Assembly (NCBI GenBank): GCA_039802325.1
Contig: JBDRWH010000001.1
Location: 1-36,997 of the forward strand
DNA length: 36,997 nt
Source of the DNA: a candidate division WOR-3 bacterium
GTDB lineage: Bacteria; Hydrothermota; Tepidihabitantia; SM23-42; JAOAFX01
Direction: 5' to 3'
The notes beneath the pieces are model-generated. The model worked only from the letters and a program-made list of their open reading frames with translations. It was not told where the DNA came from and searched no databases. This document shows, one piece after another, positions 1,146 through 23,938 of the stretch; position 1 is the stretch's first letter; the number at the start of each line of letters is the position of its first letter. Made by a program: the position numbers and the translations under genes.

Positions 1146-1156
1146 AAAACCATAAT

Positions 1157-1228: not shown

Positions 1229-1239
1229 AAGGAGCAGAC

Positions 1240-2990: not shown

Positions 2991-3010
2991 CAAAATGAAA
3001 TGTGGGTAAC

Positions 3011-3038: not shown

Positions 3039-3053
3039 GTTTATGAGCATTAC

Positions 3054-4661
3054 TTAGTGAGTAACCACCAGTTTGCCTGAAACAGTCTTTTTATCAGTCT
3101 TCAGCACAACCACATAGGCACCATTCGCAAGCTCACGGGTATCAAGTGTCACAGTATAGAATCCCGCATTCCTATTACCCTGATCAATTTTCTGAACCAA
3201 TCTGCCATCAGCGGTGTAGAGATTGATTGAAACACTGCCTGTCTTGGGCAGGGCATAAGAAATACCTGTCTGATTGCGTACAGGATTTGGTGCAACATTG
3301 AGTGCGAGTTTCTTTGGAGTCTCGGTCTTATTCTCAGCAATACCAATGATTGGATTTCTGCCAACATACCAGCGCGCAGCAGTTGGGGATCCATTATTAA
3401 TGTTCCAGTACAGGTCAAGCAATGGGTCTGCTATGGCACAGCCAAAAACAAAGAAAAGTTGACCGTTTCCTGCTGGGTCCAATCTCTTGGCAATCTGCCA
3501 GAGGCTGTTGTTGTGGTCAGTGATATTGCCAGTTAGATTTCTTGGCGTTGACCAGGTTGAGCCATTGTTTGTTGAATAGTTGTAATAAACATCCCAGAAT
3601 GTATACTGACCTGTGCCACTGCGAGGTTGACCAAATAAAACCACCACATAGTTGCCTTCTGCCGCAATTGTTGGATAAAAACATCTGGCATCACTTGCAG
3701 TATTACCAACTTCTATACAATTGGCACCAGAGGCTGTGGAAACATAGATCTTACCACGATAAGGATAAAGGCCTCCGCCATAATCATCACCATGCCAGTT
3801 ATCAAAAACCAGAATCGGATTACCCGCATCTGTCACCGCAACTTGCGTAAAGCCAATAATGTTGCTGGTGTATGGATTGGGCCAGTTTACAGTCCAGGTC
3901 TGCTCAGCACTCCAGTTTACACCATCAGTTGATGACTTGTAATAGACATTGAGAGCATCGTCATAATAGAATACATAGGCAGTTCCACCATTGCAGTCAT
4001 AGCCCCAGTAGTAATTTGTTGCTACTGTTCCGCTCGCAATTGGGGTACCGAGATCAGCTGAGTAGGTCCGATAATAGATTACATTGGCATCCGTAACACT
4101 GATAAACAGAATATTGCCATTTCCCAGTTGGATACCATTGTTTTTGTGAGTAGCAATATTGCCAGGTCCAATATCAACCGGGGCATCCCAGAACGAAGAG
4201 AACCAGCCACCGCTCTCATATTGTCCACCCATACCACCCCAGGCTCCACTGATAAGATAGGGGAATGAAATATGTGGACCAGAACCATCTATTGAACCCA
4301 CTGCAGTAGGATACCGGGCAGGACCAAGATCACCTGCATAGGCAGCAACATCGGTCAATGCGCCGCTGAATATATTATCATTTTGCCAGACATCAAGATT
4401 ACCACTGGTCACAAAATTTCTGCAGACAAATTCCAAATAGCCATCAATAGGTTCATAAGCAAGGCTGGTCTGCATCTGGGTCCACAAGGAATATTCGTTC
4501 GCTGAAGAATCAGCAGCTACAATATCCCTTGTAACCATTACCGGCACATGTCTGTCACAAGAACCTGTGCCATCATCCATTTTTGCCTTATCAATATTTG
4601 CGGGCACAGTTACTGCCCAGATTACACAGGCAAAAACCAGAATAATTGATAGTTTCTTCAT
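3054..4661 (-). CDS. Secreted BNR/Asp-box (sialidase-like beta-propeller) repeat protein with a T9SS-type C-terminal sorting domain
   Basis: AAAGGAG RBS and signal peptide MKKLSIILVFACVIWA. Asp-box motifs STDGVNWS and STNNGSTWS. C-terminal tail is ...NGAYVVVLKTDKKTVSGKLVVTH. Confidence 0.7.
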   Translation of the reverse strand: MKKLSIILVFACVIWAVTVPANIDKAKMDDGTGSCDRHVPVMVTRDIVAADSSANEYSLWTQMQTSLAYEPIDGYLEFVCRNFVTSGNLDVWQNDNIFSGALTDVAAYAGDLGPARYPTAVGSIDGSGPHISFPYLISGAWGGMGGQYESGGWFSSFWDAPVDIGPGNIATHKNNGIQLGNGNILFISVTDANVIYYRTYSADLGTPIASGTVATNYYWGYDCNGGTAYVFYYDDALNVYYKSSTDGVNWSAEQTWTVNWPNPYTSNIIGFTQVAVTDAGNPILVFDNWHGDDYGGGLYPYRGKIYVSTASGANCIEVGNTASDARCFYPTIAAEGNYVVVLFGQPRSGTGQYTFWDVYYNYSTNNGSTWSTPRNLTGNITDHNNSLWQIAKRLDPAGNGQLFFVFGCAIADPLLDLYWNINNGSPTAARWYVGRNPIIGIAENKTETPKKLALNVAPNPVRNQTGISYALPKTGSVSINLYTADGRLVQKIDQGNRNAGFYTVTLDTRELANGAYVVVLKTDKKTVSGKLVVTH

Positions 4662-4730
4662 TTTTTTCTCCTTTCTTTTTTATATAACCAGATGTCTAAC
4701 CACTTTGTGGTTACTCTTTCATATATTTTT

Positions 4731-4739
4731 ATTATAGCA
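4731..4739 (-). promoter_or_regulatory. Candidate extended -10 promoter (TGcTATAAT) upstream of the BNR-repeat gene
   Basis: Minus strand reads TGCTATAAT. No good -35 is present. The 5' UTR contains a 7-bp hairpin, TAACCAC-aaa-GTGGTTA. Confidence 0.3.
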
Positions 4740-4756
4740 TCACCTCCTTTTCCTCT

Positions 4757-7405
4757 TTATTTAACCAACAGCACCTTATTAATGAAGATATGTTCACCGG
4801 CTTGAGCACGGACAAAATAGACACCAGACGCACAACCAGCTGGCAACCATAGAAAATCATTGTCGCCCTTAGATAACCTGCCCTGATAAACCGTTGTGGC
4901 CTTTCTGCCGGCAACATCAAAGACTTCAATTGTTCCAGAAGTTTCTCTGCCAATTGAGAATTGAATATGCAATGGACTACTTGATTTAGCAGGCTGTGGC
5001 ATTATTTTCAAGTAACCAGAAATGCATCTTTCGCAATTTTCTTCAATTCCCACCACATCCTGCTTGATAATCAGCAGTCCAGCACTACCATCAGCAAGGT
5101 AAATCAGATTATTCCTGTAATCAAAACTCACGGCAGTACTGACTGAGAGTGTATAACCAATCTCTGCGGGTGCTGATGGATTGGCAACATTTATCACCCT
5201 AATACCACCTGCTGTTCCGTCAGCAACAAAAATGTGATTATTGAAATACTGGATACCAGAAGCAGTTCCTGGTGTATCAAGCGAACCTAACAGAATAAGC
5301 GTATCAGAACTTGAGGCATCAAAGACTTTAATCCCTGCAGTACCATCTGCAGCATAGACATAATTGCCTGCTTTCGTCACACTGTACGCTATTCCATTTG
5401 TATCATAATATCCTGTTTCAACTGGATTGGAAGGTGTTGAAACATCTATTATTCGCACACCTTTTGTAGCATCCGCAACATAGGCAAAATTATTAGCAAC
5501 AACAACATCATAGGCAAATCCTGCAGTATTGAATGTTCCAAGGATGACGGGATTTGCAGGATCCTGGACATTAACAATGACCAATCCCTGGGAACGAGCA
5601 CAAACATAAAGAATATTGCCTGATATGTATAAACCAAGCACATCATCTGTTAGACTCAGTTTTCCCACCTGAACAGGATTTGATGGATTGGACAATGAAA
5701 GTATTCTCAATGTATCTTCACGGTCACCAACATATAAATATTGAGATGAACCGGTAATCGTGATTGAATTGCCCGGCAGGCTTATTTGATTTACATATTC
5801 AGGTAATGTTGAATCAGCTATATCTACTACAATCAAACCAGCAGTACCATCTGCTATGTATGCATAATTACCAATAATAATAACATCATTTGCCCAGCCC
5901 GGTGTATCAGAATGCCCTATCAAGTTAACATTTGTTGAATGGTTCAATTCTACTACCCGAGACCTTCCAAAACTTCCGTCCGCAGCAAGTCGGGCATTAC
6001 TTGAATTCATGGCTGAAATATTCACCCGCAATGAACAGCCAACAATATCTGTGCAGGTCCAGACATACTTGCCCGTATTGGGAACATTATCGCTAATCAA
6101 TGTCCAGCGTAAGGAATCATAACTATCAAGGTTATTACCTTTTGACCACCATAGCTTCATATGGTCAATATTAGTTCCTTCTGTATGCCAGCGAATTGCA
6201 TATTTTATATTCTTGAACATCACTGGCATATTATAAATATCACCGCCTCTGGGATAGTCAAGAAATACATTATTCGGATTTGAACCACCTGGCACAAGGG
6301 TGACTACATAATCATACGAATAGACACCACTATAATATGTCCACAGGGGCCAGAGCGGTTCATCATTACCCCAGGTTGTATGGACAATGACAAATGTATC
6401 GCTACCTGTGATCTCATAGCCAACACCAGTAATAGAATGATTGATATAATCGGACATTGGAGGATACCAGTAATAGAGAACACTCCAGTGACAGGGTCTC
6501 TGGGCATCAATCTCAGTTTGTATCCAGGAGAAGACATACTGGTTCCAGTTGCCACCCTGTGGTGAAGTAGCAGCGGTAAATGAGTAACCATTATAGGTAT
6601 TGGCAACGGTTAACATACCAGGTCTTATATTACCAATTGTTGTGCCACCGGTCAATGTATCAGTATTCATTGCAATAGCAAGTTCGCGATTGGTATTGGC
6701 ACAATCATTCCATTCATTTTCAGGATTGTCCCAGTGTGTGAAAAAATAGTCAACAAGTTTACCATAGCCACGATAATCCCAGTACCAGAACATCATGGAA
6801 GCAGCGGTAGGAGAACAACCATAGACCCAGTCAATAAAAGGAACTGAATCAACATAATTGCCCCAGCGTGTTCTAAAGTCATCGGTATTAAGATATTTTT
6901 CCCATTTTTGCCTGGTGAGTAATTCAAGTATTTGATCGGATTTACACTCTTTTAATTCTTCATCTCTACGAATTTGTCCATTTCTCACATTTATCAATAT
7001 CTTTTTTCCGTTTACATCAAAACCCGCATATTCTTCCCCAGCCCCAAAATAGTAATTGTGTTGAAATACGGGTTCACCAGAAATTTGTTTTCTCAAATTA
7101 TCCAGTGCTCGGTCATGAAACCTTTCACAATAAGGTGCACCATGATATATCTCACCAATTGGTGATGTCGTGTATCTTGCACCCATCACTATTGTTAGAT
7201 TATCCTTTCCATTTTGAAAAACAAAACCATAAGCATTGGTTTTTTCATCAACACCAAAATAGGTTATTACATTTGCCAATCTGTATTCAGAACCATATCT
7301 CTGATTAACGAACTTATACGCCAGTGCTTCAATTTTTTCCTTGGGTATAAATTCAGAACCAAAGACAATCCCTGCCAGAATCAATAAAACAAAGAATTTC
7401 TTCAT
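4757..7405 (-). CDS. Secreted multidomain protein: papain-fold (C39-like/C10-like) cysteine peptidase domain, LVIVD-repeat beta-propeller and T9SS-type C-terminal domain
   Basis: I place the start at ATG 7405 (AAGAGG RBS, signal peptide MKKFFVLLILAG). The track's 7471 start is a TTG and would put a 13-bp hairpin inside the coding region. Candidate catalytic motifs are YGCSPTAASMMFWYW and NHSITGVGYE. Repeated GLIVVDIAD, GLVIVNVQD, GVRIIDVST, GIKVFDASS and GIRVINVAN. Tail is SGVYFVRAQAGEHIFINKVLLVK. Confidence 0.7.
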   Translation of the reverse strand: MKKFFVLLILAGIVFGSEFIPKEKIEALAYKFVNQRYGSEYRLANVITYFGVDEKTNAYGFVFQNGKDNLTIVMGARYTTSPIGEIYHGAPYCERFHDRALDNLRKQISGEPVFQHNYYFGAGEEYAGFDVNGKKILINVRNGQIRRDEELKECKSDQILELLTRQKWEKYLNTDDFRTRWGNYVDSVPFIDWVYGCSPTAASMMFWYWDYRGYGKLVDYFFTHWDNPENEWNDCANTNRELAIAMNTDTLTGGTTIGNIRPGMLTVANTYNGYSFTAATSPQGGNWNQYVFSWIQTEIDAQRPCHWSVLYYWYPPMSDYINHSITGVGYEITGSDTFVIVHTTWGNDEPLWPLWTYYSGVYSYDYVVTLVPGGSNPNNVFLDYPRGGDIYNMPVMFKNIKYAIRWHTEGTNIDHMKLWWSKGNNLDSYDSLRWTLISDNVPNTGKYVWTCTDIVGCSLRVNISAMNSSNARLAADGSFGRSRVVELNHSTNVNLIGHSDTPGWANDVIIIGNYAYIADGTAGLIVVDIADSTLPEYVNQISLPGNSITITGSSQYLYVGDREDTLRILSLSNPSNPVQVGKLSLTDDVLGLYISGNILYVCARSQGLVIVNVQDPANPVILGTFNTAGFAYDVVVANNFAYVADATKGVRIIDVSTPSNPVETGYYDTNGIAYSVTKAGNYVYAADGTAGIKVFDASSSDTLILLGSLDTPGTASGIQYFNNHIFVADGTAGGIRVINVANPSAPAEIGYTLSVSTAVSFDYRNNLIYLADGSAGLLIIKQDVVGIEENCERCISGYLKIMPQPAKSSSPLHIQFSIGRETSGTIEVFDVAGRKATTVYQGRLSKGDNDFLWLPAGCASGVYFVRAQAGEHIFINKVLLVK

Positions 7406-7422
7406 TTTTATTCCTCTTTTAA

Positions 7423-7453
7423 GGCGGGGTTCTGATAAAATCAGAACCCCGCC
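7423..7453 (-). other. Perfect 13-bp GC-rich hairpin in the porV-peptidase intergenic spacer
   Basis: GGCGGGGTTCTGA-taaaa-TCAGAACCCCGCC. In the minus (sense) orientation it is not followed by a U-tract. It is more likely an mRNA-stability or processing hairpin, or a leaky attenuator, than a full terminator. Confidence 0.6.
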
Positions 7454-7460
7454 TGATTTT

Positions 7461-8573
7461 TCAGAATCCAATAATCAATCCCAGACGATGAGTCGCCTTC
7501 AACACACCCTTATTCATATAGGCGTAGTCAATGCGTAATTCCCTTTCTGCCATCTTGAGATTGAATCCAACACCAGCACAGAGGTTATTAAGAAGCCACT
7601 CGGTATTTTCGCCCCAGTTTGGATAGGTATATTTTTCCTGAGCAGAGTCATACACTGGTTCAGCACCGGTCATTGCCTTCATATAATCCATATTCAAGTA
7701 TACCTTGTATCCTGTCCTCAGAAATATAGTATTCAAGTAGCCATACTCAAGACCAAGGTTTATTGTTTCGTAATTGTCATTCGGGTGATTTAAATCCAGT
7801 GCTACGGTTAGCCTTTGATTTTCACTTTCAACCGGATTCATTGCCAGACCAAATCTGAAGATCAATGGTAAGGGAAACGGAGTCGTCTTAAGAGTGACTG
7901 GAATTTCCTCATAGTCAAGTGGAGAATCAGGGAAAGGATCTGCTGACCTGTCCAATTGTCTGCCGCCGAATGTAATGTCTGAGCCAAAGTTAGCCATTGA
8001 AGCAGCAATCTTCAATCCTTTGAAACCAGTATTATAATGAATACCAAAATCTGTGCCGATTCCACTGGCTGACATATCCCAGATCATTTCTTGCACTGCT
8101 TTGATCGTAAATCCAGCAGCAAGACGGTCAGTGAACATCCTTCCAAAGGAAATGCCAAGGGCAAAATCAGAGGCATTGAAAAAGGTTCCAGTCCCGGTAT
8201 CCTCACGCACGGTTTTGGTATTTGGGTCATCCACTGTTGTATATTCCATTTTACCCATTGTCAGGGCGGTCAAACTGAATCCGAGTGTTCCCATATTAGA
8301 AAGAGGAAGGGCAACTGCGAGATATTCATGTTTTAAATCCGCAATCCATTCATTGTGCTGGAGCGACAGTTGACGATTATTCAAAATGCCCAGCCCGGCC
8401 GGATTCCAGTAGGTGGCTGAGGCATCATCAGAGATAGCAACAAATGCCTCACCCATTGCTGCACCACGACCTACGCCGATCTTTAAGAACTGGGCACCTG
8501 ATGTCCCGAGTTTGGCAAAATCTGCAAACAGGGGAATCGCTAATATCAGGATTATTGTTAGGTACCTTTTCAT
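7461..8573 (-). CDS. porV: PorV/PorQ-family outer-membrane beta-barrel protein (T9SS cargo-shuttle-like)
   Basis: GGAGG RBS and a signal peptide. The N-terminal signature GTSGAQFLKIGVGRGAAMGEAFVAISDDASATYWNPAGLG is typical of the PorV/LptO family. Size is 370 aa and the sequence ends in an aromatic F. Confidence 0.7.
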   Translation of the reverse strand: MKRYLTIILILAIPLFADFAKLGTSGAQFLKIGVGRGAAMGEAFVAISDDASATYWNPAGLGILNNRQLSLQHNEWIADLKHEYLAVALPLSNMGTLGFSLTALTMGKMEYTTVDDPNTKTVREDTGTGTFFNASDFALGISFGRMFTDRLAAGFTIKAVQEMIWDMSASGIGTDFGIHYNTGFKGLKIAASMANFGSDITFGGRQLDRSADPFPDSPLDYEEIPVTLKTTPFPLPLIFRFGLAMNPVESENQRLTVALDLNHPNDNYETINLGLEYGYLNTIFLRTGYKVYLNMDYMKAMTGAEPVYDSAQEKYTYPNWGENTEWLLNNLCAGVGFNLKMAERELRIDYAYMNKGVLKATHRLGLIIGF

Positions 8574-8582
8574 TTTTGCCTC

Positions 8583-11546: not shown

Positions 11547-11558
11547 CTTGACCTCCTG

Positions 11559-14330: not shown

Positions 14331-14341
14331 TGCACACCTCC

Positions 14342-15376: not shown

Positions 15377-15467
15377 TTATGCCTCCTTTGCTTTATTTCA
15401 TTATTTTTTTCCAGCCTGTTTTTTGTTTTTATTTCTCACCCCCTTTTTCCTACAATATTCTATTTAT

Positions 15468-15495
15468 ATTATATTAAAAAAGGAGAACTTGTCAA
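15468..15495 (-). promoter_or_regulatory. Sigma70-type promoter of the lipoprotein/receptor/cargo/PorV operon: TTGACA-N16-TATAAT
   Basis: Minus strand has cccTTGACA at 15495..15490 and TATAAT at 15473..15468. A purine-rich leader of about 91 nt ends in AAAGGAGG. Confidence 0.6.
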
Positions 15496-15501
15496 GGGTG
15501 A

Positions 15502-16110
15502 TTATTTGAATTTGAATTCTATCTTTCTGAAAACCCAAACCCTGACAAGTTTATCCCGTTGTTTTGCTGGAGTAAATCTATATTTCCAGACGCTTGCCAC
15601 TGCTGCTTCATCAAGAAGTTGATTACCACTGGATTTGACAACCTGGACATCAATTACACTGCCATCTATATTTACCAGAAATTTTACCTGGAGACTTCCT
15701 TCAATCCCTGCCCTTTTTACCAGTTCTGGCCATTCAGGCGGTGGCATTGATATGGGTTGTGGTTTTACCTCTACTTTAAAATATGGAACCACTTCAATCT
15801 CAGGACCCGTAGGCTGGGTTCTTATTATGTCTTCCCGGAATTCGGTTGCTGCAATTGTTTCAACTGCTTCTTCAGCAACTTCAGTTGCGGCTGCTGCCAC
15901 TGCCACCTTTGGCCTTTCCACCGGTGGTGGCTCTTCGTATTTTTCTATCTCAGCTGAGATTTGCTCAACCATTGTTACAATCTCTTTCCTTAATTTATAG
16001 GGTTCAACTTCAGCATACGGCAAGAATAGAAACAACAAAATCAGAATGATTATGCCCAGAAGCATACCGGTGCGGAAATATACACCATACATCAATTTAT
16101 GGTCGCGCAT
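15502..16110 (-). CDS. tonB: Energy transducer TonB (N-terminal TM, Pro/Glu-rich linker, TonB C-terminal domain)
   Basis: I place the start at ATG 16110, with GGAGG 5 nt upstream inside the last codons of exbD; the track's 16134 start is a TTG. TM helix, then EEPPPVERPKV linker. The C-terminal segment PEWPELVKRAGIEGSLQVKFLVNIDGSVIDVQVVKSSGNQLLDEAAVASVWKYRFTPA is typical of TonB_C. Confidence 0.8.
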   Translation of the reverse strand: MRDHKLMYGVYFRTGMLLGIIILILLFLFLPYAEVEPYKLRKEIVTMVEQISAEIEKYEEPPPVERPKVAVAAAATEVAEEAVETIAATEFREDIIRTQPTGPEIEVVPYFKVEVKPQPISMPPPEWPELVKRAGIEGSLQVKFLVNIDGSVIDVQVVKSSGNQLLDEAAVASVWKYRFTPAKQRDKLVRVWVFRKIEFKFK

Positions 16111-16111
16111 A

Positions 16112-16531
16112 TCAACCTCCAAATTCAGTGGCAAAAGTTATCTTAAATGCTCGGGCTTCCTTCAATTGGTCAAGGACAACATCCACAATACCATACTCAA
16201 TATTTTCATCAATGTTCAAAATTGTAACCAGTTCCGAATTCTCAGCAATCTTCGGAATCATTTTTGTACTCACCCTTTCTTTTGGAACCAAACTATCATC
16301 AATAAACACCCTGCCGTTACTATCAACCCAGACATGGGTGATGTTTCTTCGGATCAAAATCCTTTCTGTTGATTTTGCCTTTGGCAGGACAAGTTTAAGA
16401 TTAAGCGCAGTTGCCCTGAACACGGTAGTCACCATAAAGAAAAGAATCAACAAAAATGCAACATCAGCAGTTGATGCAGTGGGAATATCCGGGGTTTTTG
16501 TAAACCTTCTTATAATACTTTTGCGCATCAT
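16112..16531 (-). CDS. exbD: ExbD/TolR-family biopolymer transport protein (second copy)
   Basis: Single N-terminal TM (ADVAFLLILFFMVTTVF) followed by a periplasmic domain. ATGA overlap with the upstream exbD. Confidence 0.8.
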   Translation of the reverse strand: MMRKSIIRRFTKTPDIPTASTADVAFLLILFFMVTTVFRATALNLKLVLPKAKSTERILIRRNITHVWVDSNGRVFIDDSLVPKERVSTKMIPKIAENSELVTILNIDENIEYGIVDVVLDQLKEARAFKITFATEFGG

Positions 16532-16992
16532 TCCTCACTGGTTGGTATCAAACTTATCTTATTTGCCCTCAACTCCCTGCCATCCTGGGTAACAACCCTG
16601 CACAGTTTTATCTGGTCAAGTACTGAAATCATTGCCTGATATCTTGCATCCTTACTTGTCCTCAATGAAACTACAAGCAAGGTATCCCGTTCAAGAAGTT
16701 TCTCTTCAACTATTCTGCGCACCTCAGAGTATTGCTGTGGAGAGATATCAATTCCGTCATATCCTGAAGCCCTTAATTTCAGTGCCCCTTCAGGATTGAT
16801 CAAGATTGAAACAACATTTTCAGGTTTTACTTTTGTCTCAGTCTGAGATTTTTCAGGCAGGAGCATTTTAATACCTTTTTCCCGGGTAAACACTGTGGTG
16901 GTCATAAAGAAAATGATTATCAGAAACGCAATATCACCCATTGAGGCAGTCGGAATGATTGCATTTATTTTTTTCTTTGCCCTCAACTCCAT
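16528..16992 (-). CDS. exbD: ExbD/TolR-family biopolymer transport protein (first copy)
   Basis: Motif MGDIAFLIIIFFMTTTVF plus a periplasmic domain. Directly abuts the exbB stop. Confidence 0.8.
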   Translation of the reverse strand: MELRAKKKINAIIPTASMGDIAFLIIIFFMTTTVFTREKGIKMLLPEKSQTETKVKPENVVSILINPEGALKLRASGYDGIDISPQQYSEVRRIVEEKLLERDTLLVVSLRTSKDARYQAMISVLDQIKLCRVVTQDGRELRANKISLIPTSEE

Positions 16993-17616
16993 CTATTTTT
17001 TCCTTTTCTGATAATGCTCAATCATATAGTCAATCAAACCTGCAGCAACTTCTTCCATATCCTTTGTGTATCCATCAACTTTACCAGAAAAGAGAATATG
17101 CAATATTGCAAGCGGGGTTGCGATAATCAAACCCCATTTGGTCGTAATCAATGCCTCAGAGATACCGCTGGCAACGATTGTCGGTTCAACCTCACCTGCT
17201 GCTGCTATTGCTGCGAAAGCACGAATCATGCCGGTAACCGTGCCTAAAAATCCAAGGAAGGGAGCGACCGTGGTCAAACCCGCTAACAAAGCCATCCCCC
17301 GGTCCAAAAATCCCAATTCAATTGCTGCAGCACGGGCAGCAACTTCTTCCATTGCATCCTTACCTTTATCTGCCTTTTGCAGAATTTCCTTGGCAATTTT
17401 TGCAGCCGGAGATGGTGTATGGTCACACAGCGCAATACCAGCATCAACACCCTGGGCATCAATTGTGGAAACGAGTTTTTCCAAGAAGCTCTTTGGATTT
17501 AATCTTATTTTTATCAAAAGTGAAAAAAGACGCTCAAGTATTATGCCCAATGCCAGTATAATGCACACCAATAATAGCCACATTACACCGCCACCAATTG
17601 AAAATTCCCTAACCAT
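16993..17616 (-). CDS. exbB: MotA/TolQ/ExbB-family proton channel protein
   Basis: AAGGAGG RBS. Three TM helices. The conserved C-terminal core LAGLTTVAPFLGFLGTVTGMIRAF...GISEALITTKWGLIIA is typical of ExbB/TolQ. Confidence 0.85.
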   Translation of the reverse strand: MVREFSIGGGVMWLLLVCIILALGIILERLFSLLIKIRLNPKSFLEKLVSTIDAQGVDAGIALCDHTPSPAAKIAKEILQKADKGKDAMEEVAARAAAIELGFLDRGMALLAGLTTVAPFLGFLGTVTGMIRAFAAIAAAGEVEPTIVASGISEALITTKWGLIIATPLAILHILFSGKVDGYTKDMEEVAAGLIDYMIEHYQKRKK

Positions 17617-17643
17617 AGAATAAGCCTCCTTTCATTATTTTAG

Positions 17644-17671
17644 ATTATATAAAAATTACTAACAATGTCAA
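17644..17671 (-). promoter_or_regulatory. Sigma70-type promoter of exbB-exbD-exbD-tonB: TTGACA-N16-TATAAT
   Basis: Minus strand has cccTTGACA at 17671..17666 and TATAAT at 17649..17644. A 27-nt leader contains AAGGAGG. Confidence 0.6.
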
Positions 17672-17674
17672 GGG

Positions 17675-18025
17675 TCATTTTGAACTTGCACTATAATAGA
17701 GAATACCCCCAATAAGCGGGAAAAGACCCGCACCAAAAAACAGAAAACTCTCATACCGTGCAAGCGCAAGAGAACGGACAATCAAATCAAAAATGTCACC
17801 TGGACCAGCAACGCTCAGAAGCGGAAAGTAAAAGACAATACGGTATATATGGAACACTGCCACCGCAATCAGGAATACACAACCGATCACAGGGAAAATC
17901 CATATTCCTTTACCACCGATCAAATTCAACAATCTTTTCAGAATTAGACCAAAAATAATTAAAGAAACAATGGCGAGCAATATTGCCACCATAAAGATAA
18001 TTTCTGCCAAAATATCAGCCCTCAT
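17675..18025 (-). CDS. Small integral membrane protein (116 aa, about 4 TM), unknown function
   Basis: AGGAGG RBS and a uniformly hydrophobic helical sequence. Last gene of the module-2 operon. Confidence 0.6.
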   Translation of the reverse strand: MRADILAEIIFMVAILLAIVSLIIFGLILKRLLNLIGGKGIWIFPVIGCVFLIAVAVFHIYRIVFYFPLLSVAGPGDIFDLIVRSLALARYESFLFFGAGLFPLIGGILYYSASSK

Positions 18026-18047
18026 GAGACCTCCTATTTAGAAAATT

Positions 18048-18102
18048 GAAGTTAAGAAGTTCTGAAGTTATGTGGTTATGAACCTTGGAACTTCCTAACT
18101 TC
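18048..18102 (-). repeat. 15-bp-stem hairpin (GAAGTTAGGAAGTTC / GAACTTCTTAACTTC on the minus strand) between the two small membrane-protein genes
   Basis: The arms at 18048..18062 and 18088..18102 have one G-U position in the minus-strand RNA and enclose a 25-nt loop. One arm overlaps the stop codon of 18101..18469. The arm sequence resembles GGAAGTTAGAAGTT at 395..408. Confidence 0.65.
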
Positions 18103-18469
18103 ATTTTCCTTTGGTTACTCCATAAAATCTCAAGTTTGCTACAAGCGAAAGGATTCCTGAGAGGAAGAACAAGCCATAAGCAAGGTAATTTATTCCACCC
18201 TTTGGAAGCATCATTTTTCCACCAATGCCGCAGAATATTAATTGAATCAATGCAAAAAGCAGAATGCCAGTAGGTGCAATCATCATAAACTGCCAGTTTG
18301 TCTTTTCCCCAAGCACAATCTCATACCTGCGGGCAATTATGCCTAAAAAAATAAAAGCAAGCCATAGCAGTACCGCACCAAGAACTAACACATAGTTCGG
18401 GAAAATTGCCAGTGCTTGATATGTAGAAGGCTCAATCCCGAATGGTGCGGAAAATAGAATCAATTCCAT
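18101..18469 (-). CDS. Small integral membrane protein (122 aa, about 4 TM), unknown function
   Basis: AAGGGGG RBS-like sequence upstream and four hydrophobic segments. Confidence 0.6.
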   Translation of the reverse strand: MELILFSAPFGIEPSTYQALAIFPNYVLVLGAVLLWLAFIFLGIIARRYEIVLGEKTNWQFMMIAPTGILLFALIQLIFCGIGGKMMLPKGGINYLAYGLFFLSGILSLVANLRFYGVTKGK

Positions 18470-18489
18470 AAAACCCCCTTTTTCTCAAA

Positions 18490-19077
18490 TCATTTCAGTT
18501 TTCCTAAAAGCTTATTCGTGAGATCTTTGCCCTTGGTTGGTCCGATAATCATACCTGCTGCCTTGCCCAGGGCAAAAATGAATCTTCTTATATCTTCTTC
18601 ATAAAGTTCATCCGCTTTGATTCTTTGGGCCTTGAGTTGATTTTGATATACCCTCTCAGTAAAATCACCTAAATAATCCTGGACAACTGCTTTCAGTTGA
18701 TCAAGAAACTCTGGTGCAAATCTCTCTTTTGGTTTTTCTGCTTCAACAACCTCTACCTTTTGCTTAGCTCTAATCTCTTTAATTGCGTTCCAGATAGTAT
18801 CCAGAATTTGCGCCTGGGTTGTAGCATAAATGTGTCCAATCAGTTCATTTTCAGCAATATCACAAACCAGGCTCTGGTTATTTCCAACAATTTCAATAGT
18901 ATCAATCTTAACATCACCCACTGCACCGATGGATTCAAAAAGTACTGTTCCGGTCTGCGAAAACTTTGTCTTTTTCTGTTCACCACCCTTAGAAGTGATT
19001 GTCTCTCCATCTTTCATTACGATAAAAGGCAAACCCAGCCCTCGTTCTTCAATCTTATTCAGTATCTCTTCATTCAT
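18490..19077 (-). CDS. Cytoplasmic protein with a possible Roadblock/LC7-like N-terminal domain, charged linker and helical C-terminal domain
   Basis: AAGGAGG RBS. Same overall layout as the upstream gene: an alpha/beta N-domain (...LPFIVMKDGETITSKG...), a KQKVEVVEAEKPKE linker and a helical tail. The Roadblock assignment is weaker than for 19089..19874. Confidence 0.45.
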   Translation of the reverse strand: MNEEILNKIEERGLGLPFIVMKDGETITSKGGEQKKTKFSQTGTVLFESIGAVGDVKIDTIEIVGNNQSLVCDIAENELIGHIYATTQAQILDTIWNAIKEIRAKQKVEVVEAEKPKERFAPEFLDQLKAVVQDYLGDFTERVYQNQLKAQRIKADELYEEDIRRFIFALGKAAGMIIGPTKGKDLTNKLLGKLK

Positions 19078-19088
19078 CTCTTACCTCC

Positions 19089-19874
19089 TTATATCTGCTT
19101 CATCTTTTCAATTACTGCCTGGACTTTTACCCTTGCTTGAGATGATCCCATTTCCTCAACTGCCTTCTTAACAAGAAAGTCAATCACCGTACGCAGTATC
19201 TGCACAATATCATCTTCTTTTTCAGATGGTGGAGTTTGTTTAAACTCTATTTTTTCGCCAATAATACCTATCATTGGCAATATTTCAGTGGCAATCACGC
19301 CAAGACCCTGATTAAGAATACCAAGCCAGTGCTCTTTTTTTCCGCCACTTCCAAATTCCTCAATCAGTAAGTTTATCTGGGTCAATTTTGAATTGATACT
19401 CCTGGACAATTGAATTTCGACCTTTGGAGGTACTACTGAAGGTTTTTCCGCTTCAACGACTTTTTCTTCAACTACCTTCTCCTCAACTTTTTCCTCAACA
19501 ATTTTGACTTCAGGTTCTTTCTCCACCTTCTCTTCTATCTTCTCCTCTTTGACTTTCTCCTCTTTTACCGGCAGAAGTTGTTCCTTAATCCTTTCAATAA
19601 TATCCAGGGGTTTTTCATCCCTTACCACCTCAACCCCGAGGTATTTACCGTTATGAAAAAAAATTATTAGACGATTTGCTCCATAACACATAGAAACAAA
19701 TTTTATTTCACCTAAATTCAGTGTATTCTTTATCACCTCGGCAGCCGAGGAGAAAAAGGCGGTAAGGTCACCAAGGGGTGAAGTTGATGAACCCTTGACT
19801 TTTTCAATTGAACCATCCTCGGCATTGACCACTGCATAGTTAATAATTCCTGGAATCTTATCCAATATTTCCAT
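19089..19874 (-). CDS. Roadblock/LC7 (MglB-like fold) domain protein with an (EEKV)n linker and helical C-terminal domain
   Basis: AAGGAG RBS. The N-terminus ILDKIPGIINYAVVNAEDGSIEKVKG...LTAFFSSAAEVIKN...ANRLIIFFHNGKYLGVEV fits the Roadblock/LC7 pattern (L--iPGv--a-vv--dG-i). Residues 103-145 are a Glu/Lys/Val repeat. Confidence 0.6.
   Translation of the reverse strand: MEILDKIPGIINYAVVNAEDGSIEKVKGSSTSPLGDLTAFFSSAAEVIKNTLNLGEIKFVSMCYGANRLIIFFHNGKYLGVEVVRDEKPLDIIERIKEQLLPVKEEKVKEEKIEEKVEKEPEVKIVEEKVEEKVVEEKVVEAEKPSVVPPKVEIQLSRSINSKLTQINLLIEEFGSGGKKEHWLGILNQGLGVIATEILPMIGIIGEKIEFKQTPPSEKEDDIVQILRTVIDFLVKKAVEEMGSSQARVKVQAVIEKMKQI
19440..19568 (-). repeat. In-frame low-complexity coding repeat encoding a Glu/Lys/Val-rich (EEKV)n linker
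   Basis: Residues 103-145 of the Roadblock-like protein are VKEEKVKEEKIEEKVEKEPEVKIVEEKVEEKVVEEKVVEAEK. Confidence 0.8.
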
Positions 19875-19887
19875 TCCCGACTCCTTT

Positions 19888-20724
19888 CTATTTTAATCCA
19901 GTACGGAGCTCATCAATCTTCTTCTTAAACAACAATTTTCCGTAAAGCTGTGGACCTTCGCTATTTACGAATTGCTCAAATTTTCTTCTGAAGCTATCAA
20001 TCTGATCCTGAGTCAATGGATTTTGCAAACCAACCTCTAAGGTTTCTTCATCCACTCTTAACGCTGAACCCAATGATTGATTTTCTGGTTCCATTTCACA
20101 CCATCTCTTGTACCAGTTCAATCCATTTTTTCCGAATGTTCTGAAAAAGACATTGAAATAACGGATCAAGACCGCCATCAATCTTTCTGCCTCTTTTGGG
20201 TCATAGATAAGACCCTGTTCTTTAAGCCAGATAATGGTCTTTATTGTTTCATAACCGCCTAATTGTGATTGGCTAATGATTTCATTTAATGTTCTCTTGC
20301 CGTCAACCATTGCCAGAACCTGCCAGTCTGTACGCCGCAGTGCAACTGCAGAAGGTAATTCTTTTGTTGATTTTGCTAAGACTGCGTCTCGTGGTGGCAG
20401 GCGGTCCTTGATTTTCTCAAATTCAACACGCCTCTTTTCAATATTTTCGTTTAGCTTTCCTACATCTTCAGAGATTGTCTGCTCGTTTGTCCTTACCCCT
20501 GACTCAAATGTAGCATGGTCAAGTCGGGCAAGAGAAAGATTTAGGAGTGATTCAAATCCCTTTTCCAGGCCATCAGTGGCATGTACAATATATCCTTCCT
20601 TGACATATATCTCACCACTCAATTCTCCGCTCACCCTTATTAGACCGGTTTTCTTTAACTGCACGAGAAAACTCAATAAATCAGAAACACTAAATTCCTT
20701 TAAATTGATTTCAATATCAGCCAT
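19888..20724 (-). CDS. DUF4388 (PatA-N-like) domain protein
   Basis: The ATG directly follows the TAA of module gene D2 (TAAATG). The N-terminus LKEFSVSDLLSFLVQLKKTGLIRVSGELSGEIYVKEGYIVHA matches the DUF4388 signature (L--f-l-dllq-l----ktG-L-v-----g-i-f-~G-iv-A). Confidence 0.65.
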   Translation of the reverse strand: MADIEINLKEFSVSDLLSFLVQLKKTGLIRVSGELSGEIYVKEGYIVHATDGLEKGFESLLNLSLARLDHATFESGVRTNEQTISEDVGKLNENIEKRRVEFEKIKDRLPPRDAVLAKSTKELPSAVALRRTDWQVLAMVDGKRTLNEIISQSQLGGYETIKTIIWLKEQGLIYDPKEAERLMAVLIRYFNVFFRTFGKNGLNWYKRWCEMEPENQSLGSALRVDEETLEVGLQNPLTQDQIDSFRRKFEQFVNSEGPQLYGKLLFKKKIDELRTGLK

Positions 20725-21342
20725 TTATATTGCTCCTAACCAATTGTGCAAAAGAAAATATATTCTACCGATAAACAGCGAGACACGAGCCATAACTGTA
20801 TAGCCGAAAGATGCACCAAACGATACCATCATAAACCAGATACCGATCTTTGCACCGATACCTAAAGCACCTCGGTGCTCTTTGGAAAAATAGAAATAGA
20901 GAAGAGTGAAGATTACACCAAGGATAATCAGCATATTGGAGAATGTAGAAAAAACAGACATATTTGTCAAAGGCAGGAATGTTGCCTGTAACTGCGGGAA
21001 AATATCGCCCTGGATTATCTGAGTAATAGATACTGCCATTGCTATACCCATGGTAAATGTGAGTGGAATGCGAATCATCCATGATATCCTGGGGATGAGT
21101 GGAGCGAACATCAAAAAACCTATGAAAATAGGAAAGATATTATACCATTGCCCTCTCTGGAATAAGGGCTCAAAAAGATTGGGCCAGGCAAAATCATACC
21201 AGAGCACAACTGCCCAGTATCCTGCAGAAACACCAACAAAAATATTCTCGGCGATCTTGTAAAAAGGATTATCTTTATACAAAAATGAATATATCGCTAA
21301 GGTTAATAGGGCAGCAATCCATATACCAATCGTGCTTATCAT
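20725..21342 (-). CDS. Module protein D, copy 2; polytopic membrane protein of unknown family
   Basis: Paralog of 2282..2902. ATGA overlap with C2, and its stop abuts the DUF4388 gene start. Confidence 0.85.
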   Translation of the reverse strand: MISTIGIWIAALLTLAIYSFLYKDNPFYKIAENIFVGVSAGYWAVVLWYDFAWPNLFEPLFQRGQWYNIFPIFIGFLMFAPLIPRISWMIRIPLTFTMGIAMAVSITQIIQGDIFPQLQATFLPLTNMSVFSTFSNMLIILGVIFTLLYFYFSKEHRGALGIGAKIGIWFMMVSFGASFGYTVMARVSLFIGRIYFLLHNWLGAI

Positions 21343-22160
21343 TTCTTTCTCCTCTGGGAAACCAATATCACATTGCCAAGCACAATGAACCCAACAAGAA
21401 GAAGGTGAACAATAGACTGAGCATCCATTCCTCTCAATCCTCTGCCTTTCCTATTTACGAGTGTCTCATATTCTGCAGCACCTTTTAATCCACCTAAAAG
21501 CCCAACTAACTGTCCTGAGCTCAAATATGCATATTGTTGCGGTGCCATAATCGCGGTTGTTGCCCCGCAAATTGGCACTCCATACCGGGCGTGGAAATAG
21601 ATTATCCAGTGTAGAATACCAGGATCACCAGCAGAAAAGGTCATTACTGCCTTAAGATCCTTTGCTGATTTTACTGCCCTGCCCAAAGCAAAAGAGTCTA
21701 TGGGGATACCTTGATAATCAACTTTTATTACATCCGAAAAATTGCGTCCCAGACTCAAGAGCATTACTGCACCACCAGGTCTATAACCAACATTGATATA
21801 GTCCTCACCATATTTTTTGTCATAAATTTGAGCAAGGTTGTTAAGTGCAATATTCCCAAGTTCACTACCAGCAGGCCATAAGCCCATCATATATATTCTT
21901 AAGTTCTTACGAAAACAATGTTCAATCACTGCCTCAGTTGCGGGATAGAGTTCTGCCTCACTACCTGGGTCGTAATCAGTGGAAATAAGTACTATAGAAC
22001 CGCTGGGTAATGACTCAATCTTATTGTAGACATTTTTGACCGGTTTTGTAATATCAACCGGTAAATTCAATGGTACAATCATTGGAATGATAACTGCCAG
22101 TGCAACAAGAAGAAAAATAATCCTGCGGTCAAGATGACTCAACCTTTCAATGAGATTCAT
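21339..22160 (-). CDS. Module protein C, copy 2; bitopic protein with a soluble central domain
   Basis: Paralog of 1240..2103 with TM helices at both ends. Confidence 0.85.
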   Translation of the reverse strand: MNLIERLSHLDRRIIFLLVALAVIIPMIVPLNLPVDITKPVKNVYNKIESLPSGSIVLISTDYDPGSEAELYPATEAVIEHCFRKNLRIYMMGLWPAGSELGNIALNNLAQIYDKKYGEDYINVGYRPGGAVMLLSLGRNFSDVIKVDYQGIPIDSFALGRAVKSAKDLKAVMTFSAGDPGILHWIIYFHARYGVPICGATTAIMAPQQYAYLSSGQLVGLLGGLKGAAEYETLVNRKGRGLRGMDAQSIVHLLLVGFIVLGNVILVSQRRKK

Positions 22161-22195
22161 GAAACCGCCGCTCCCGGGAAAACCTTATAGTTTAT

Positions 22196-22239
22196 GAATT
22201 CGGATTCATTTGAAATTTGCAATTTGAAATTTGGAATCC
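22196..22239. promoter_or_regulatory. Tandem 12-nt direct repeat ATTTGAAATTTG x2 (14-nt period) flanked by inverted GGATTC/GAATCC in the B2-C2 spacer
   Basis: Repeats at 22208..22219 and 22222..22233, each containing the near-palindrome AAATTT. Flanks are at 22202..22207 and 22234..22239. Confidence 0.4.
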
Positions 22240-22862
22240 TAATGTTCACCTCCTCCCATATAACTCCTTTCAATTCCCAGCAGAACGCGCAACGCCATTG
22301 ATATTAATCCTAAGTCAATGCCAAACAAGATACCCCGCTTCGCAGCAGTATTCGGAACCTGCATTATCCACTCAACAAGGTCAGGGAATTTGTGCCAGAT
22401 TGAATAACCGATAGGAATCCTGCCAACCATCACAATCACCGCAGCGACAAGAAGCATTGTCGCTTCGGGTGTCTTTGCCCTGAAAGCCCTGAATGACGCT
22501 GAGGCAACAAAAAAAGCAAGCAAAGAAAACATGGTCGCCCCAAGTGGAACCTGAAAATTTTCAAAGAAGTACAAAAACACTCTTGAATCCCTGCCACCGA
22601 CAAACCCGGTACCAAGCATAATGCCGAGAAAGGATAGTAGAACTATGCTGTATTGCCAATCCCGTAATTTGCGTTGAATCTTATCAACATTTATTCTTAT
22701 TAAATTAAAGATTCCAATAAAGACAAAAAACGCAGCAACGCCCTGATACCACAACTGAAGCAGTTGAGAACTATCCTGGGCAAATTTTGCAGGAATAAAA
22801 AAAGTTATCAGCATATAGAAACCACAACAGAACACAATTATTAAAGGTATAATTGTTTTCAT
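22239..22862 (-). CDS. Module protein B, copy 2; polytopic membrane protein
   Basis: Paralog of 465..1145. ATGA overlap with A2. Confidence 0.85.
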   Translation of the reverse strand: MKTIIPLIIVFCCGFYMLITFFIPAKFAQDSSQLLQLWYQGVAAFFVFIGIFNLIRINVDKIQRKLRDWQYSIVLLSFLGIMLGTGFVGGRDSRVFLYFFENFQVPLGATMFSLLAFFVASASFRAFRAKTPEATMLLVAAVIVMVGRIPIGYSIWHKFPDLVEWIMQVPNTAAKRGILFGIDLGLISMALRVLLGIERSYMGGGEH

Positions 22863-23938
22863 TCTATCGTATTAAAGATATTAACAAAAAATTGCCAGTT
22901 TAATATCTGGCTAAAAACCCCGATGATTATAACACTAATGAATATCAGTTTCCCGAGATCTTGTCCTTTCAGTGATCCTAACTGGACTGGTTCTTGAGAA
23001 AGATAAGCACTTGCTGCATACAATTCTTCACCCAGGAGCGTAAAATCACAGGCTGCTACAAAAAATGGTAGTTGATCAGGCATTGCAGTGCCCGCAATCT
23101 GAACTGCACCTGTCGAATGACCGGTTTCAGCAAGAATCAGTGATTCAGCATAAAAGGTGCCAAGGTATAAATTTGTTGCTGGCTTTTCACGAACCATAAT
23201 ACCATCCACTGCTGATACATAGGCAAATTGGTCGTCTGTTATATAACGGATGTTATCTGAATTATACCAATCAGAACGACCAGTTCTGGTCGCTGACTCT
23301 TTCACAACCTGTTGTGCCATAGTCATTGCCATTGAATGGCAGGTTGGTACATATAAAGGTGTACCGTATTCTGCAGTCTTCTCAGCAACTCTTGACAGAA
23401 TACTCATTGAGGCAATCGTCTGAGGGTCATCAATATCCATGATTCCCGGCACATACAAAACAGGTTTACCCATTTCAGTTGCCCTGCCAATTGCCTCTTC
23501 AATGGCACTGAGCGCTGGTATCTTTCTGATAAACAGTTTACCACCCTTCTTCGCCTGGCTTATGTAGAAAAGAACTGATGCGAAAAGGACCATCATACAT
23601 ATTGCCAGAGGCAGGCGATATAGGTTAAAATATTGAATAACAGGTTTTACAGGACCAACAAGGTTGGAAAAAACGGCATTGGAATCAGTCATACCAGCGA
23701 TCCGGTAATAGTAACCTGCACCGGGCATTAAATTGTAATCCTGATATGTATACTCAGAACCCTCAATCTCACCAATTTTTTCAAAAATCCCTTCTGGTTC
23801 AACTCCCCTGAATATTTCGATAACTCTATAGTGATTGTCAAGTTGCCAGTTTAGAGTAATGCTTGAACCATCATCATTGGGCGTGTCCAAAGCCCGCAAA
23901 TTGATGCTATATATAATATATAGTGCAACTGAAAACAT
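22859..23938 (-). CDS. Module protein A, copy 2 (full length, 359 aa): N-terminal FN3-like domain, TM helix, roughly 210-aa soluble domain, C-terminal TM helix
   Basis: The N-terminal LDTPNDDGSSITLNWQ...GAGYYYRI resembles FN3-like surface modules. TM helix is LPLAICMMVLFASVLFYI. The C-terminal third is paralogous to 1..369. A promoter sits immediately upstream of the ATG. Confidence 0.8.
   Translation of the reverse strand: MFSVALYIIYSINLRALDTPNDDGSSITLNWQLDNHYRVIEIFRGVEPEGIFEKIGEIEGSEYTYQDYNLMPGAGYYYRIAGMTDSNAVFSNLVGPVKPVIQYFNLYRLPLAICMMVLFASVLFYISQAKKGGKLFIRKIPALSAIEEAIGRATEMGKPVLYVPGIMDIDDPQTIASMSILSRVAEKTAEYGTPLYVPTCHSMAMTMAQQVVKESATRTGRSDWYNSDNIRYITDDQFAYVSAVDGIMVREKPATNLYLGTFYAESLILAETGHSTGAVQIAGTAMPDQLPFFVAACDFTLLGEELYAASAYLSQEPVQLGSLKGQDLGKLIFISVIIIGVFSQILNWQFFVNIFNTIE

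Follow-up and report, generated by a model that had tools for sequence, protein, structure and literature searches.

A predicted TonB-dependent transport locus with type IX secretion-tailed surface proteins and an adjoining DUF6754 membrane module in a candidate division WOR-3 bacterium

RESULTS

Organization of the locus

The stretch of DNA analysed here (the window) comprises positions 1 to 36,997 of contig JBDRWH010000001.1 from a candidate division WOR-3 bacterium (assembly GCA_039802325.1), a placement with which its best database matches agree. It carries an array of 19 consecutive open reading frames (ORFs), running from position 23938 down to position 3054 on the minus strand (Table 1), which encodes an ExbB-ExbD-ExbD-TonB motor, a TonB-dependent outer membrane transporter, proteins with the C-terminal tail typical of the type IX secretion system (T9SS), a block of putative regulators and four membrane proteins, A to D, the first of which contains a DUF6754 domain. 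In our view the locus is a TonB-dependent system with unprecedented accessories, next to a genuinely uncharacterised inner membrane family. From A to the last gene the spacers measure -4, 78, -4, 0, 13, 11, 20, 75, 58, 0, -4, -23, 125, 11, 12, 9, 55 and 95 nt (negative values are overlaps). Only one exceeds 100 nt, so that the ORF listing bears out the original prediction of 19 minus-strand genes with short spacers. Co-directionality alone is no evidence of a unit, since the minus-strand run continues past 23938 through 12 further, unrelated genes up to 35227 and the GC skew is uniformly negative. The assignment of the products to cellular layers in that prediction agrees with topology from hydropathy, and its identification of ExbB, two ExbD proteins, TonB, a TonB-dependent receptor-like barrel and a PorV-like barrel is backed by family scores above cutoff.

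Compared with related loci, the array is composed of what appear to be recombining modules, of which we distinguish five. Module T is ABCD, that is, DUF6754 and three families without a Pfam match; module R consists of a PATAN protein, a Roadblock-like protein F, protein G and the small membrane proteins H and I; module E is exbB-exbD-exbD-tonB; and module O contains a lipoprotein, an Oar-class TonB-dependent transporter, a T9SS-tailed protein of 987 aa (P987) and a PorV/PorQ-family barrel. The fifth, module M (a small protein, a MutL-like ASKHA ATPase and a 375-aa protein), was seen only in other phyla.

Table 1. Positions of genes and DNA signals in the window (TM, transmembrane)
Feature	Position	Strand	Description
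A	22859..23938	-	Signal-like N terminus, periplasmic Fn3 domain, TM segment, alpha/beta DUF6754 domain, C-terminal TM segment
B	22239..22862	-	Polytopic membrane protein, about 6 TM segments (hydropathy); no known family
C	21339..22160	-	TM segment, Rossmann-like alpha/beta/alpha domain (predicted periplasmic), TM segment
D	20725..21342	-	Polytopic membrane protein; no known family
E (fifth gene)	19888..20724	-	Cytoplasmic PATAN/DUF4388 protein; PF14332, 36.5 bits (cutoff 25)
F	19089..19874	-	Roadblock/LC7-like N-terminal domain and conserved helical C-terminal domain, joined by an E/K-rich linker
G	18490..19077	-	Cytoplasmic; three-part layout as in F
H	18101..18469	-	Small membrane protein, 3-4 TM segments
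I	17675..18025	-	Small membrane protein, 3-4 TM segments
ExbB	16993..17616	-	PF01618, 90.4 bits (cutoff 22.9); three hydrophobic segments
ExbD copy 1	16528..16992	-	PF02472, 64.9 bits; Asp in TM segment (GDIAFL)
ExbD copy 2	16112..16531	-	PF02472, 72 bits; Asp in TM segment (ADVAFL)
TonB	15502..16134	-	PF03544 (TonB_C), 70.7 bits; N-terminal TM anchor, Pro/Ala-rich linker
Putative lipoprotein, 344 aa	14342..15376	-	No Pfam or NCBIfam match; conserved before the receptor
TonB-dependent transporter, 923 aa, Oar class	11559..14330	-	CarboxypepD_reg extension, Plug, barrel
P987, 987 aa	8583..11546	-	Signal peptide, conserved N-terminal domain with DxDxDG, Fn3 domain, variable region, T9SS-type C-terminal domain
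PorV/PorQ-family barrel	7461..8573	-	NF033709, 201.9 bits (cutoff 90)
C39-like peptidase/LVIVD protein	4757..7405	-	C39-like peptidase, LVIVD beta-propeller and T9SS tail; LVIVD 124.6 bits, Peptidase_C39_2 25.8 bits
535-aa secreted protein	3054..4661	-	Two Asp-box-like motifs; T9SS tail (Por_Secre_tail 36.4 bits, TIGR04183 38.7 bits)
Second ABCD (A' cut by window start)	1..2902	+	B' 465-1145, C' 1240-2103, D' 2282-2902; convergent with the array
Promoter-like site P1	23945..23972	-	TTGACA-16-TAAAAT, 11/12; 6 nt upstream of the A start
Promoter-like site P2	17644..17671	-	TTGACA-16-TATAAT, 12/12; in the I-exbB gap
Promoter-like site P3	15468..15495	-	TTGACA-16-TATAAT, 12/12; in the tonB-lipoprotein gap
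Hairpin	7422..7454	.	15-bp perfect stem between the PorV-like stop and the next ATG; no T-run
Bidirectional intrinsic terminator	3008..3041	.	16-bp perfect inverted repeat; A-run on one flank, T-run on the other

Three predicted transcription units

Promoters were sought with a consensus scan (TTGACA-16-TATAAT, near-consensus sigma-70), matches being scored out of 12. Where the original prediction had counted three, possibly four, promoters, the scan found three near-consensus sites. Sites like P1, scoring 11/12, also precede A in loci L001, L006 and L042; those like P2 precede exbB in 16 of 18 syntenic relatives and those like P3 precede the lipoprotein gene in all 18, both at 11-12/12. Given that the predicted promoters lie exactly in intergenic gaps and that P2 and P3 are conserved in relatives, the array is better described as three predicted transcription units than as one. 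The first would run from A to I, the second would be exbB-exbD-exbD-tonB, and the third would comprise the genes for the lipoprotein, the transporter, P987 and the PorV-like barrel and, beyond a hairpin, those for the C39/LVIVD and 535-aa proteins. With three predicted promoters, the notion of a single apparatus operon is not supported. The strong bidirectional terminator that had been placed at the end of the array is indeed there.

The TonB motor and the outer membrane cassette

ExbB has three TM segments, each ExbD a single TM segment with an Asp, and TonB a membrane anchor (residues 23-41 by hydropathy), a spacer that includes the sequence EEPPPVERPKV, and TonB_C. Family membership thus shows ExbB and the two ExbD proteins to be a predicted proton-driven stator, and TonB would span the periplasm. 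The order ExbB-ExbD-ExbD-TonB is the ordinary arrangement in the Fibrobacteres-Chlorobi-Bacteroidetes (FCB) group. The transporter matches PF13620 (74.8 bits), PF07715 (35.3 bits; cutoff 23.9) and PF00593 (99.1 bits; cutoff 27), and VTVVAE at about residues 107 to 112 resembles, by eye, a TonB box. It scores 72 bits against the SusC equivalog TIGR04056, for which the cutoff is 368, and none of its neighbours matches the SusD family in Pfam. The putative lipoprotein encoded just before it is found only in the WOR-3/Stahlbacteria version of the locus.

The three proteins that the original prediction took for T9SS-tailed cargo fare unequally. Both the 535-aa protein and the C39/LVIVD protein exceed the TIGR04183 cutoff of 23 bits, the latter narrowly (24.0 bits), while the tail of P987 falls below family thresholds and is recognizable by alignment, over 107 aa, with the tail of the 535-aa protein (E 0.001) and by a weak match to the PorZ tail. 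The core of P987 has no match in Pfam (E up to 10) or NCBIfam, and a profile search of PDB sequences returned Fn3 domains only. In the 535-aa protein, the two Asp-box-like motifs are seen by eye and Pfam gives no BNR match, which leaves the earlier name of BNR propeller without direct backing from family models. The barrel encoded between P987 and the C39/LVIVD protein reaches none of the PorV, PorQ and PorV2 equivalog scores. For the C39/LVIVD gene the start is most likely the ATG at 7405, downstream of the hairpin, instead of the TTG at 7471. Family scans of the window ORFs detected none of the T9SS core genes (SprA/Sov, PorK/L/M/N). A literature search on WOR-3 and type IX secretion found nothing, and another on the T9SS in related phyla was uninformative.

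The ABCD module

Protein A matches PF20539 (DUF6754) with 391 bits, above the gathering score, and has about 8000 or more homologues; a literature search for DUF6754 found nothing. In an AlphaFold2 (AF2) model of A alone, with a mean predicted local distance difference test (pLDDT) score of 69, the stretch of highest conservation (residues 260-306, with many conserved Glu/Asp) is unmodelled. Against the PDB, both a profile search of its sequences and Foldseek with the model matched the Fn3 domain only, in the latter case because the DUF6754 core is poorly modelled. For B, C and D there is no match in Pfam (E up to 10), NCBIfam or profile searches of PDB sequences. C gave a good AF2 model (pLDDT 90.7; predicted TM-score 0.87), for which Foldseek found generic Rossmann matches in the PDB only, with TM-scores of 0.35 or below. 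No homology was detected by hhalign between A and C or between B and D. We propose that ABCD is an inner membrane complex in which B and D are the polytopic subunits, C contributes a periplasmic Rossmann-like domain, and A has an Fn3 domain in the periplasm and an alpha/beta domain in the cytoplasm. For C, an arrangement like that of GldF/GldG was rejected, as C has no Pfam match of any kind.

The second ABCD unit of the window converges on the array terminator, a position that is kept in L085, L086 and L095, and no PATAN or Exb genes come after it. A', B', C' and D' are 57, 48, 33 and 46% identical to A, B, C and D, and even the truncated A' matches PF20539 with 168 bits. A look-up with B' for the region upstream of A' retrieved a 1.2-kb contig only. 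Between the D' stop and the terminator lies a 7-nt tandem repeat (2919-2990; AGTAAGT, about 10 copies, 80% matches).

The regulator block

Orthologues of the fifth gene carry the label PatA_N, in keeping with the PATAN match. The label of Roadblock-like in the original prediction finds indirect support for F. Across 20 orthologues, neither F nor G matches Robl_LC7 (PF03259) directly in Pfam at E up to 10. Profiles of F, G and their N-terminal domains retrieved no Roadblock protein from the PDB sequences, and homology between F and G is undetectable by hhalign. The N-terminal domain of F found only 11 clusters among 1.84 billion representatives. Among these relatives, P0248 (E 5e-5 to F) reaches 23.3 bits with Robl_LC7 against a cutoff of 23, P0247 matches it weakly, and P0245, P0248 and P0249 are named roadblock/LC7 proteins by NCBI. 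F is thus Roadblock-like by transitive homology, as far as these alignments can tell. In P0251, a protein of 1417 aa with NB-ARC/AAA and TPR domains, the F-like N-terminal domain is apparently repeated about six times.

G follows F in every locus seen, and H and I come after PATAN, F and G in every lineage that has them. H and I, for which Pfam (E up to 10) and NCBIfam gave no match, are the best-conserved genes of the array: H is 75-98% identical across relatives where A to D are 43-51% identical. H is also present in Edwardsbacteria and in a WOR-3 locus without ABCD.

Linkage and separability in other genomes

A scan centred on A, with one genome per species, yielded more than 570 relatives, and the best 80 loci were examined. 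These belong to WOR-3, Stahlbacteria, Zixibacteria, Coatesbacteria, Fermentibacteria/Aegiribacteria, Latescibacteria, Cloacimonadota, Poribacteria, Ignavibacteria and Effluviviaceae. Throughout the examined loci the quartet A-B-C-D does not vary, with B after A in 75 of the 80, and it often occurs in two to three tandem or convergent copies as well as scattered among housekeeping genes. Its commonest neighbours form a pair: a MutL-like ASKHA ATPase (PF13941; about 600 aa) and a soluble 375-aa protein (approximate length) that weakly matches an RnfC_N/lipoyl-like barrel-sandwich. A small conserved protein often precedes the pair. These M proteins lie beside ABCD, or beside the PATAN block in Edwardsbacteria, in L007-L010, L013-L020, L029, L039, L045, L052, L066, L073, L080 and L129. 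Next in frequency come ExbB, ExbD, the transporter and TonB, in 13 to 16 loci. The other neighbours are heterogeneous: 128 flanking proteins match 180 Pfam families with at most four members each, none of them enriched. An Rnf/Nqr-like complex was considered in view of the weak RnfC_N-type match of the 375-aa partner and the RnfA/E-like size of B and D, and was rejected because B and D have no Pfam match, Rnf/Nqr included. Glycine-cleavage genes adjoin the M proteins in Fermentibacteria and Edwardsbacteria, and an LplA-like ligase does so in Edwardsbacteria only.

The full order ABCD-PATAN-F-G-H-I-ExbB-ExbD-ExbD-TonB-lipoprotein-transporter is kept in nine WOR-3/Stahlbacteria loci, with A down to 49% identity, and in one locus in which F is only 30% identical. 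Elsewhere the parts are linked in another order, as MutL-375-ABCD-transporter-ExbB-ExbD-ExbD-TonB-P987(-PorV) in Fermentibacteria/Aegiribacteria and as ABCDx2-transporter-P987-PorV in Effluviviaceae. In L042, L049 and L056, moreover, the ABCD genes upstream of PATAN are 43-51% identical to those of the window and 57-69% identical to the unlinked ABCD of Latescibacteria and of L061, whereas L056 is 79-85% identical to L003, L004 and L006 in ExbB, 66-80% in TonB and 68-74% in H. Identity tables and a neighbour-joining tree of A agree on this point, and by both the ABCD slot beside PATAN-Exb has been refilled by a different ABCD lineage while the downstream genes stayed orthologous. Such displacement is hard to explain other than by selection for adjacency.

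To follow module O, the P987 profile was rebuilt from true relatives, after hits of a first profile in Zixibacteria and Cloacimonadota had been discarded as sharing the T9SS tail alone, and metagenome contigs were scanned, giving 47 loci. Of these P987-centred loci, 22 have P987 immediately after the transporter and seven, of the Fermentibacteria type, have it after TonB; PorV comes immediately after P987 in about 25. Transporter, P987 and PorV thus form a tight cassette, with spacers of 8-19 nt or overlaps. WOR-3-type contigs continue it with the C39/LVIVD and 535-aa proteins and then the convergent D'C'B'A'. The cassette also occurs with ExbBD-TonB and no visible ABCD (L118) and alone on unrelated metagenome contigs (L105, L119-L123, L128). 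The pairing of a TonB-dependent transporter with T9SS components is, to our knowledge, undescribed.

Module R is separable as well. A divergent WOR-3 lineage has PATAN-F-G-H-I-ExbB-ExbD-ExbD-TonB without ABCD or transporter, and another lineage has PATAN-F-G only. In Candidatus Edwardsbacteria an LVIVD T9SS protein, a small protein, the MutL-like ATPase, a 373-aa protein, two small proteins and the LplA-like ligase precede PATAN-F-G-(insert)-H-I and an Asp-box protein, with neither ABCD nor Exb genes. The combinations seen are T-R-E-O, R-E, M-R, M-T-(O/E), M-T, T-T-O, E-O and O alone.

DISCUSSION

Linkage without a single apparatus

The original prediction left room for a coincidental adjacency of A-D and the ExbBD/TonB/receptor/PorV block. 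This can be set aside, as the order is kept in about 20 WOR-3/Stahlbacteria loci, even at 49% identity of A and 30% identity of F, the parts recur reordered in Fermentibacteria/Aegiribacteria and Effluviviaceae, and two ABCD paralogue lineages occupy the same slot. Among what would speak against the link it also named an A-D/DUF4388 operon without ExbBD/TonB/receptor neighbours, and taken to the letter this is what we find: the modules are separable and ABCD is mostly without Exb genes. The recurrence of pairwise links in different orders and lineages points to a functional network, while separability and the three predicted promoters argue against a single obligate apparatus. The linkage of ABCD and the regulators with the TonB motor and the transporter is probably functional, given that it recurs in other phyla. 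Of the proton motive force-driven trans-envelope apparatus proposed earlier, both the drive and the span across the envelope are the natural reading of ExbB/ExbD/TonB and a plug-bearing transporter; the idea of one apparatus is not retained.

A TonB-dependent transport system with surface partners

Our preferred reading, to which we give a probability of roughly 0.45, is that three adjacent units build a TonB-dependent outer membrane transport system with T9SS-displayed surface partners, adjoined by an inner membrane ABCD complex. In this scheme proton flow through ExbB/ExbD would pull TonB, which would grip the TonB box of the transporter and displace its plug. P987 would be exported by a T9SS and kept at the surface by its cognate PorV/Q-type barrel, much as PorZ is by PorQ, and, being encoded beside the transporter, it might act as a substrate-capturing partner, the role that SusD and surface lipoproteins have elsewhere. 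The C39-like/LVIVD and Asp-box T9SS proteins may bind or cut a polymer outside the cell. PATAN, F, G, H and I would be an adaptor-regulator set of the Exb motor; we assign them to it because they travel with ExbBD-TonB even where ABCD is missing. Conceivably, ABCD is the inner membrane leg that takes up what the transporter imports or couples uptake to the cytoplasm, which is the weakest step of the scheme. ABCD would then be an inner membrane component that has been recruited repeatedly to the vicinity of a TonB system. In favour of this reading are the family identities, the conserved promoters, a gene order kept down to 30-50% identity, the reordered linkage elsewhere, the tightness of the transporter-P987-PorV cassette and the exchange of ABCD lineages within one slot. 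Also in its favour are the R-E loci without ABCD, the topology, the fold of C and the many paralogues of ABCD, which in this respect behaves like a transporter family.

Several observations weigh against it. The majority of ABCD units lack TonB genes within 10 kb. Their commonest partner is the MutL-like ATPase with the 375-aa protein, an association that an uptake model does not explain. No biochemical function of ABCD can be derived, as Pfam, the PDB and Foldseek gave only Fn3 and generic Rossmann matches. That the adjacent barrel would retain P987 at the surface is suggested by analogy, and Rfam revealed no riboswitch in the window or in the leader of the receptor operon. Furthermore, the Roadblock protein MglB is known to regulate motility and polarity machinery, not nutrient uptake. 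The same is true of PATAN proteins (10.1101/2021.06.11.447907).

Of the known systems, SusC/SusD-type loci resemble the array in possessing ExbB, ExbD, TonB_C, a Plug and a 22-strand-type barrel with a CarboxypepD_reg extension, and in clustering the receptor gene with those of surface-exposed accessory proteins and secreted enzymes. The window differs in lacking a SusD-like lipoprotein and in not reaching the SusC equivalog score. Its surface partner is instead T9SS-tailed, with a PorV/Q-type barrel of its own; upstream of its Exb genes lie those for PATAN/Roadblock-type proteins and for two small membrane proteins; and in place of a recognizable permease there is the unknown four-protein module. 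In Porphyromonas gingivalis, PorZ-PorQ and PorU-PorV are pairs of the T9SS attachment complex. Likewise, the window encodes a T9SS-tailed protein beside a PorV/PorQ-family barrel (NF033709). This barrel, however, stays below the PorV/PorQ/PorV2 equivalogs, P987 is unrelated to PorZ and PorU save for its tail, and a link of such a pair to a TonB-dependent transporter gene is not described there.

TonB systems are usually seen as unregulated housekeeping energisers, and we know of none with dedicated polarity-type regulators or T9SS-anchored partners. Here, a widely conserved cassette genetically joins a TonB-dependent transporter with a T9SS-tailed surface protein and the PorV/Q-type barrel of the latter, and PATAN/Roadblock-type proteins are hard-wired to an ExbBD-TonB motor. 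In addition, a four-protein inner membrane family with thousands of metagenomic members, for which we found no literature, has been recruited repeatedly to the TonB system. If these links are functional, TonB transport, type IX secretion and small-regulator modules would be connected in poorly known FCB candidate phyla, and the DUF6754 module would gain its first functional context.

Alternative explanations

The presence of PATAN/Roadblock proteins on the Exb motor keeps alive what the original prediction had proposed, a regulated envelope-spanning machine that moves or handles surface proteins in a gliding-like or T9SS-like manner. PATAN/Roadblock-controlled force from ExbBD-TonB would be passed through the periplasm to the outer membrane barrels and the T9SS-tailed proteins, with ABCD, joined in other phyla by an actin-like ATPase, as the inner membrane and cytoplasmic platform. 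We consider this unlikely. The hard-wiring of PATAN-F-G-H-I to ExbB-ExbD-ExbD-TonB in several lineages and the transitive Roadblock likeness of F fit such a machine, as do the pairing of the R block and of ABCD, each, with an ASKHA (actin-fold) ATPase in other phyla, the T9SS-tailed LVIVD and Asp-box proteins that flank the modules even in Edwardsbacteria, and a housekeeping PorV gene near the R-E block in two lineages. On the other hand, the outer membrane barrel resembles typical importers in its plug and its TonB-box-like motif, ExbB-ExbD-ExbD-TonB has a consensus promoter of its own, and two to three complete tandem copies of ABCD would be unusual for a machine. The copy number and scattering of ABCD would be more typical of a transporter family.

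Two known motors bear on this alternative. The Agl-Glt gliding machinery of Myxococcus xanthus works with MglA/MglB. It shares with the window one TolQ/ExbB-type and two TolR/ExbD-type proteins, a TonB-like protein, outer membrane barrels and a Roadblock-type cytoplasmic protein. Yet family scans of the window ORFs detected no MglA-like GTPase and no Glt- or Gld-specific family; the barrels of the window are a plug-bearing transporter and a PorV/Q-family protein, and its Exb cluster, which has a promoter to itself, is laid out as is ordinary in the FCB group. The Agl-Glt analogy drawn earlier thus comes down to a resemblance of parts lists. In cyanobacteria, PATAN regulators bind a motility motor ATPase, PilB (10.1101/2021.06.11.447907). 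The PATAN protein of the window similarly has a molecular motor encoded alongside it, on which it presumably acts; it differs in having no receiver domain and in that its partner would be a proton motor of the ExbBD type (or else ABCD or the MutL-like ATPase) and not PilB.

We find it improbable that the array is no more than three independent operons, one for a housekeeping TonB system, one for a nutrient receptor and one for unrelated membrane proteins, that are neighbours by descent, their synteny reflecting shared ancestry within one phylum. The three separate strong promoters, the continuation of the co-directional run into plainly unrelated genes, the occurrence of every module alone and the origin of most syntenic loci from one phylum-level group would all follow from such a history. 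It does not account for the linkage of the modules in another order in Fermentibacteria/Aegiribacteria and Effluviviaceae, for paralogue displacement in the ABCD slot, or for synteny that outlasts divergence to 30-50% protein identity, and beyond the M, E and O modules there are no other recurrent neighbours of ABCD. To the idea that T, R, M, E and O are exchangeable components of a single, undescribed machine that spans the envelope in FCB candidate phyla we give similarly little credence. In that case a spatially regulated ExbBD-TonB motor would power the export, anchoring or movement of T9SS-tailed surface proteins, as an alternative T9SS or gliding motor and not for nutrient import.

Least probable of all, and a long shot in our estimate, is an outward-acting transporter that exports or installs P987 or other cargo, with the PorV-like barrel as receiver: the architecture (PF13620 extension, Plug, barrel) beside dedicated ExbB/ExbD/TonB matches that of Oar (PMC6434023) and the coupling of transporter, P987 and PorV-like barrel is tight in many lineages, but the signal peptide and T9SS-type tail of P987 imply that a separate export route already exists, and the CarboxypepD_reg extension is common in FCB importers and dispensable for secretion in Oar (PMC6434023). 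Oar of M. xanthus, with its dedicated Ton system, is required for secretion of PopC, and is likewise an Oar-class transporter next to its own ExbB/ExbD/TonB genes (PMC6434023). In contrast to that system, the neighbouring protein in the window carries a signal peptide and a T9SS tail, and Oar is without a PorV-type partner, ABCD or PATAN modules.

Additional features of the window

Upstream of the array, the minus-strand genes at 23969-35227 include envelope polysaccharide functions (GT2, Wzz/tyrosine-kinase-like, Poly_export/SLBB and a PMT-like glycosyltransferase) mixed with housekeeping genes (GidB, MazG, PSP1, DivIC, IMPDH). The GT2 gene lies 30 nt from A, an adjacency that is not kept in other lineages. 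The hairpin inside the third predicted operon might serve in attenuation or in RNA processing. Ahead of the lipoprotein/transporter genes there is a leader of 35-210 nt (15376-15468 in the window, and the tonB-lipoprotein gaps in L001-L102), for which Rfam gave no match. Almost all relatives have in it, soon after the -10 element and well upstream of the real ribosome-binding site, a Shine-Dalgarno-like AAAGGrGGTGA, which may be an mRNA-stabilising element or belong to a tiny upstream ORF.

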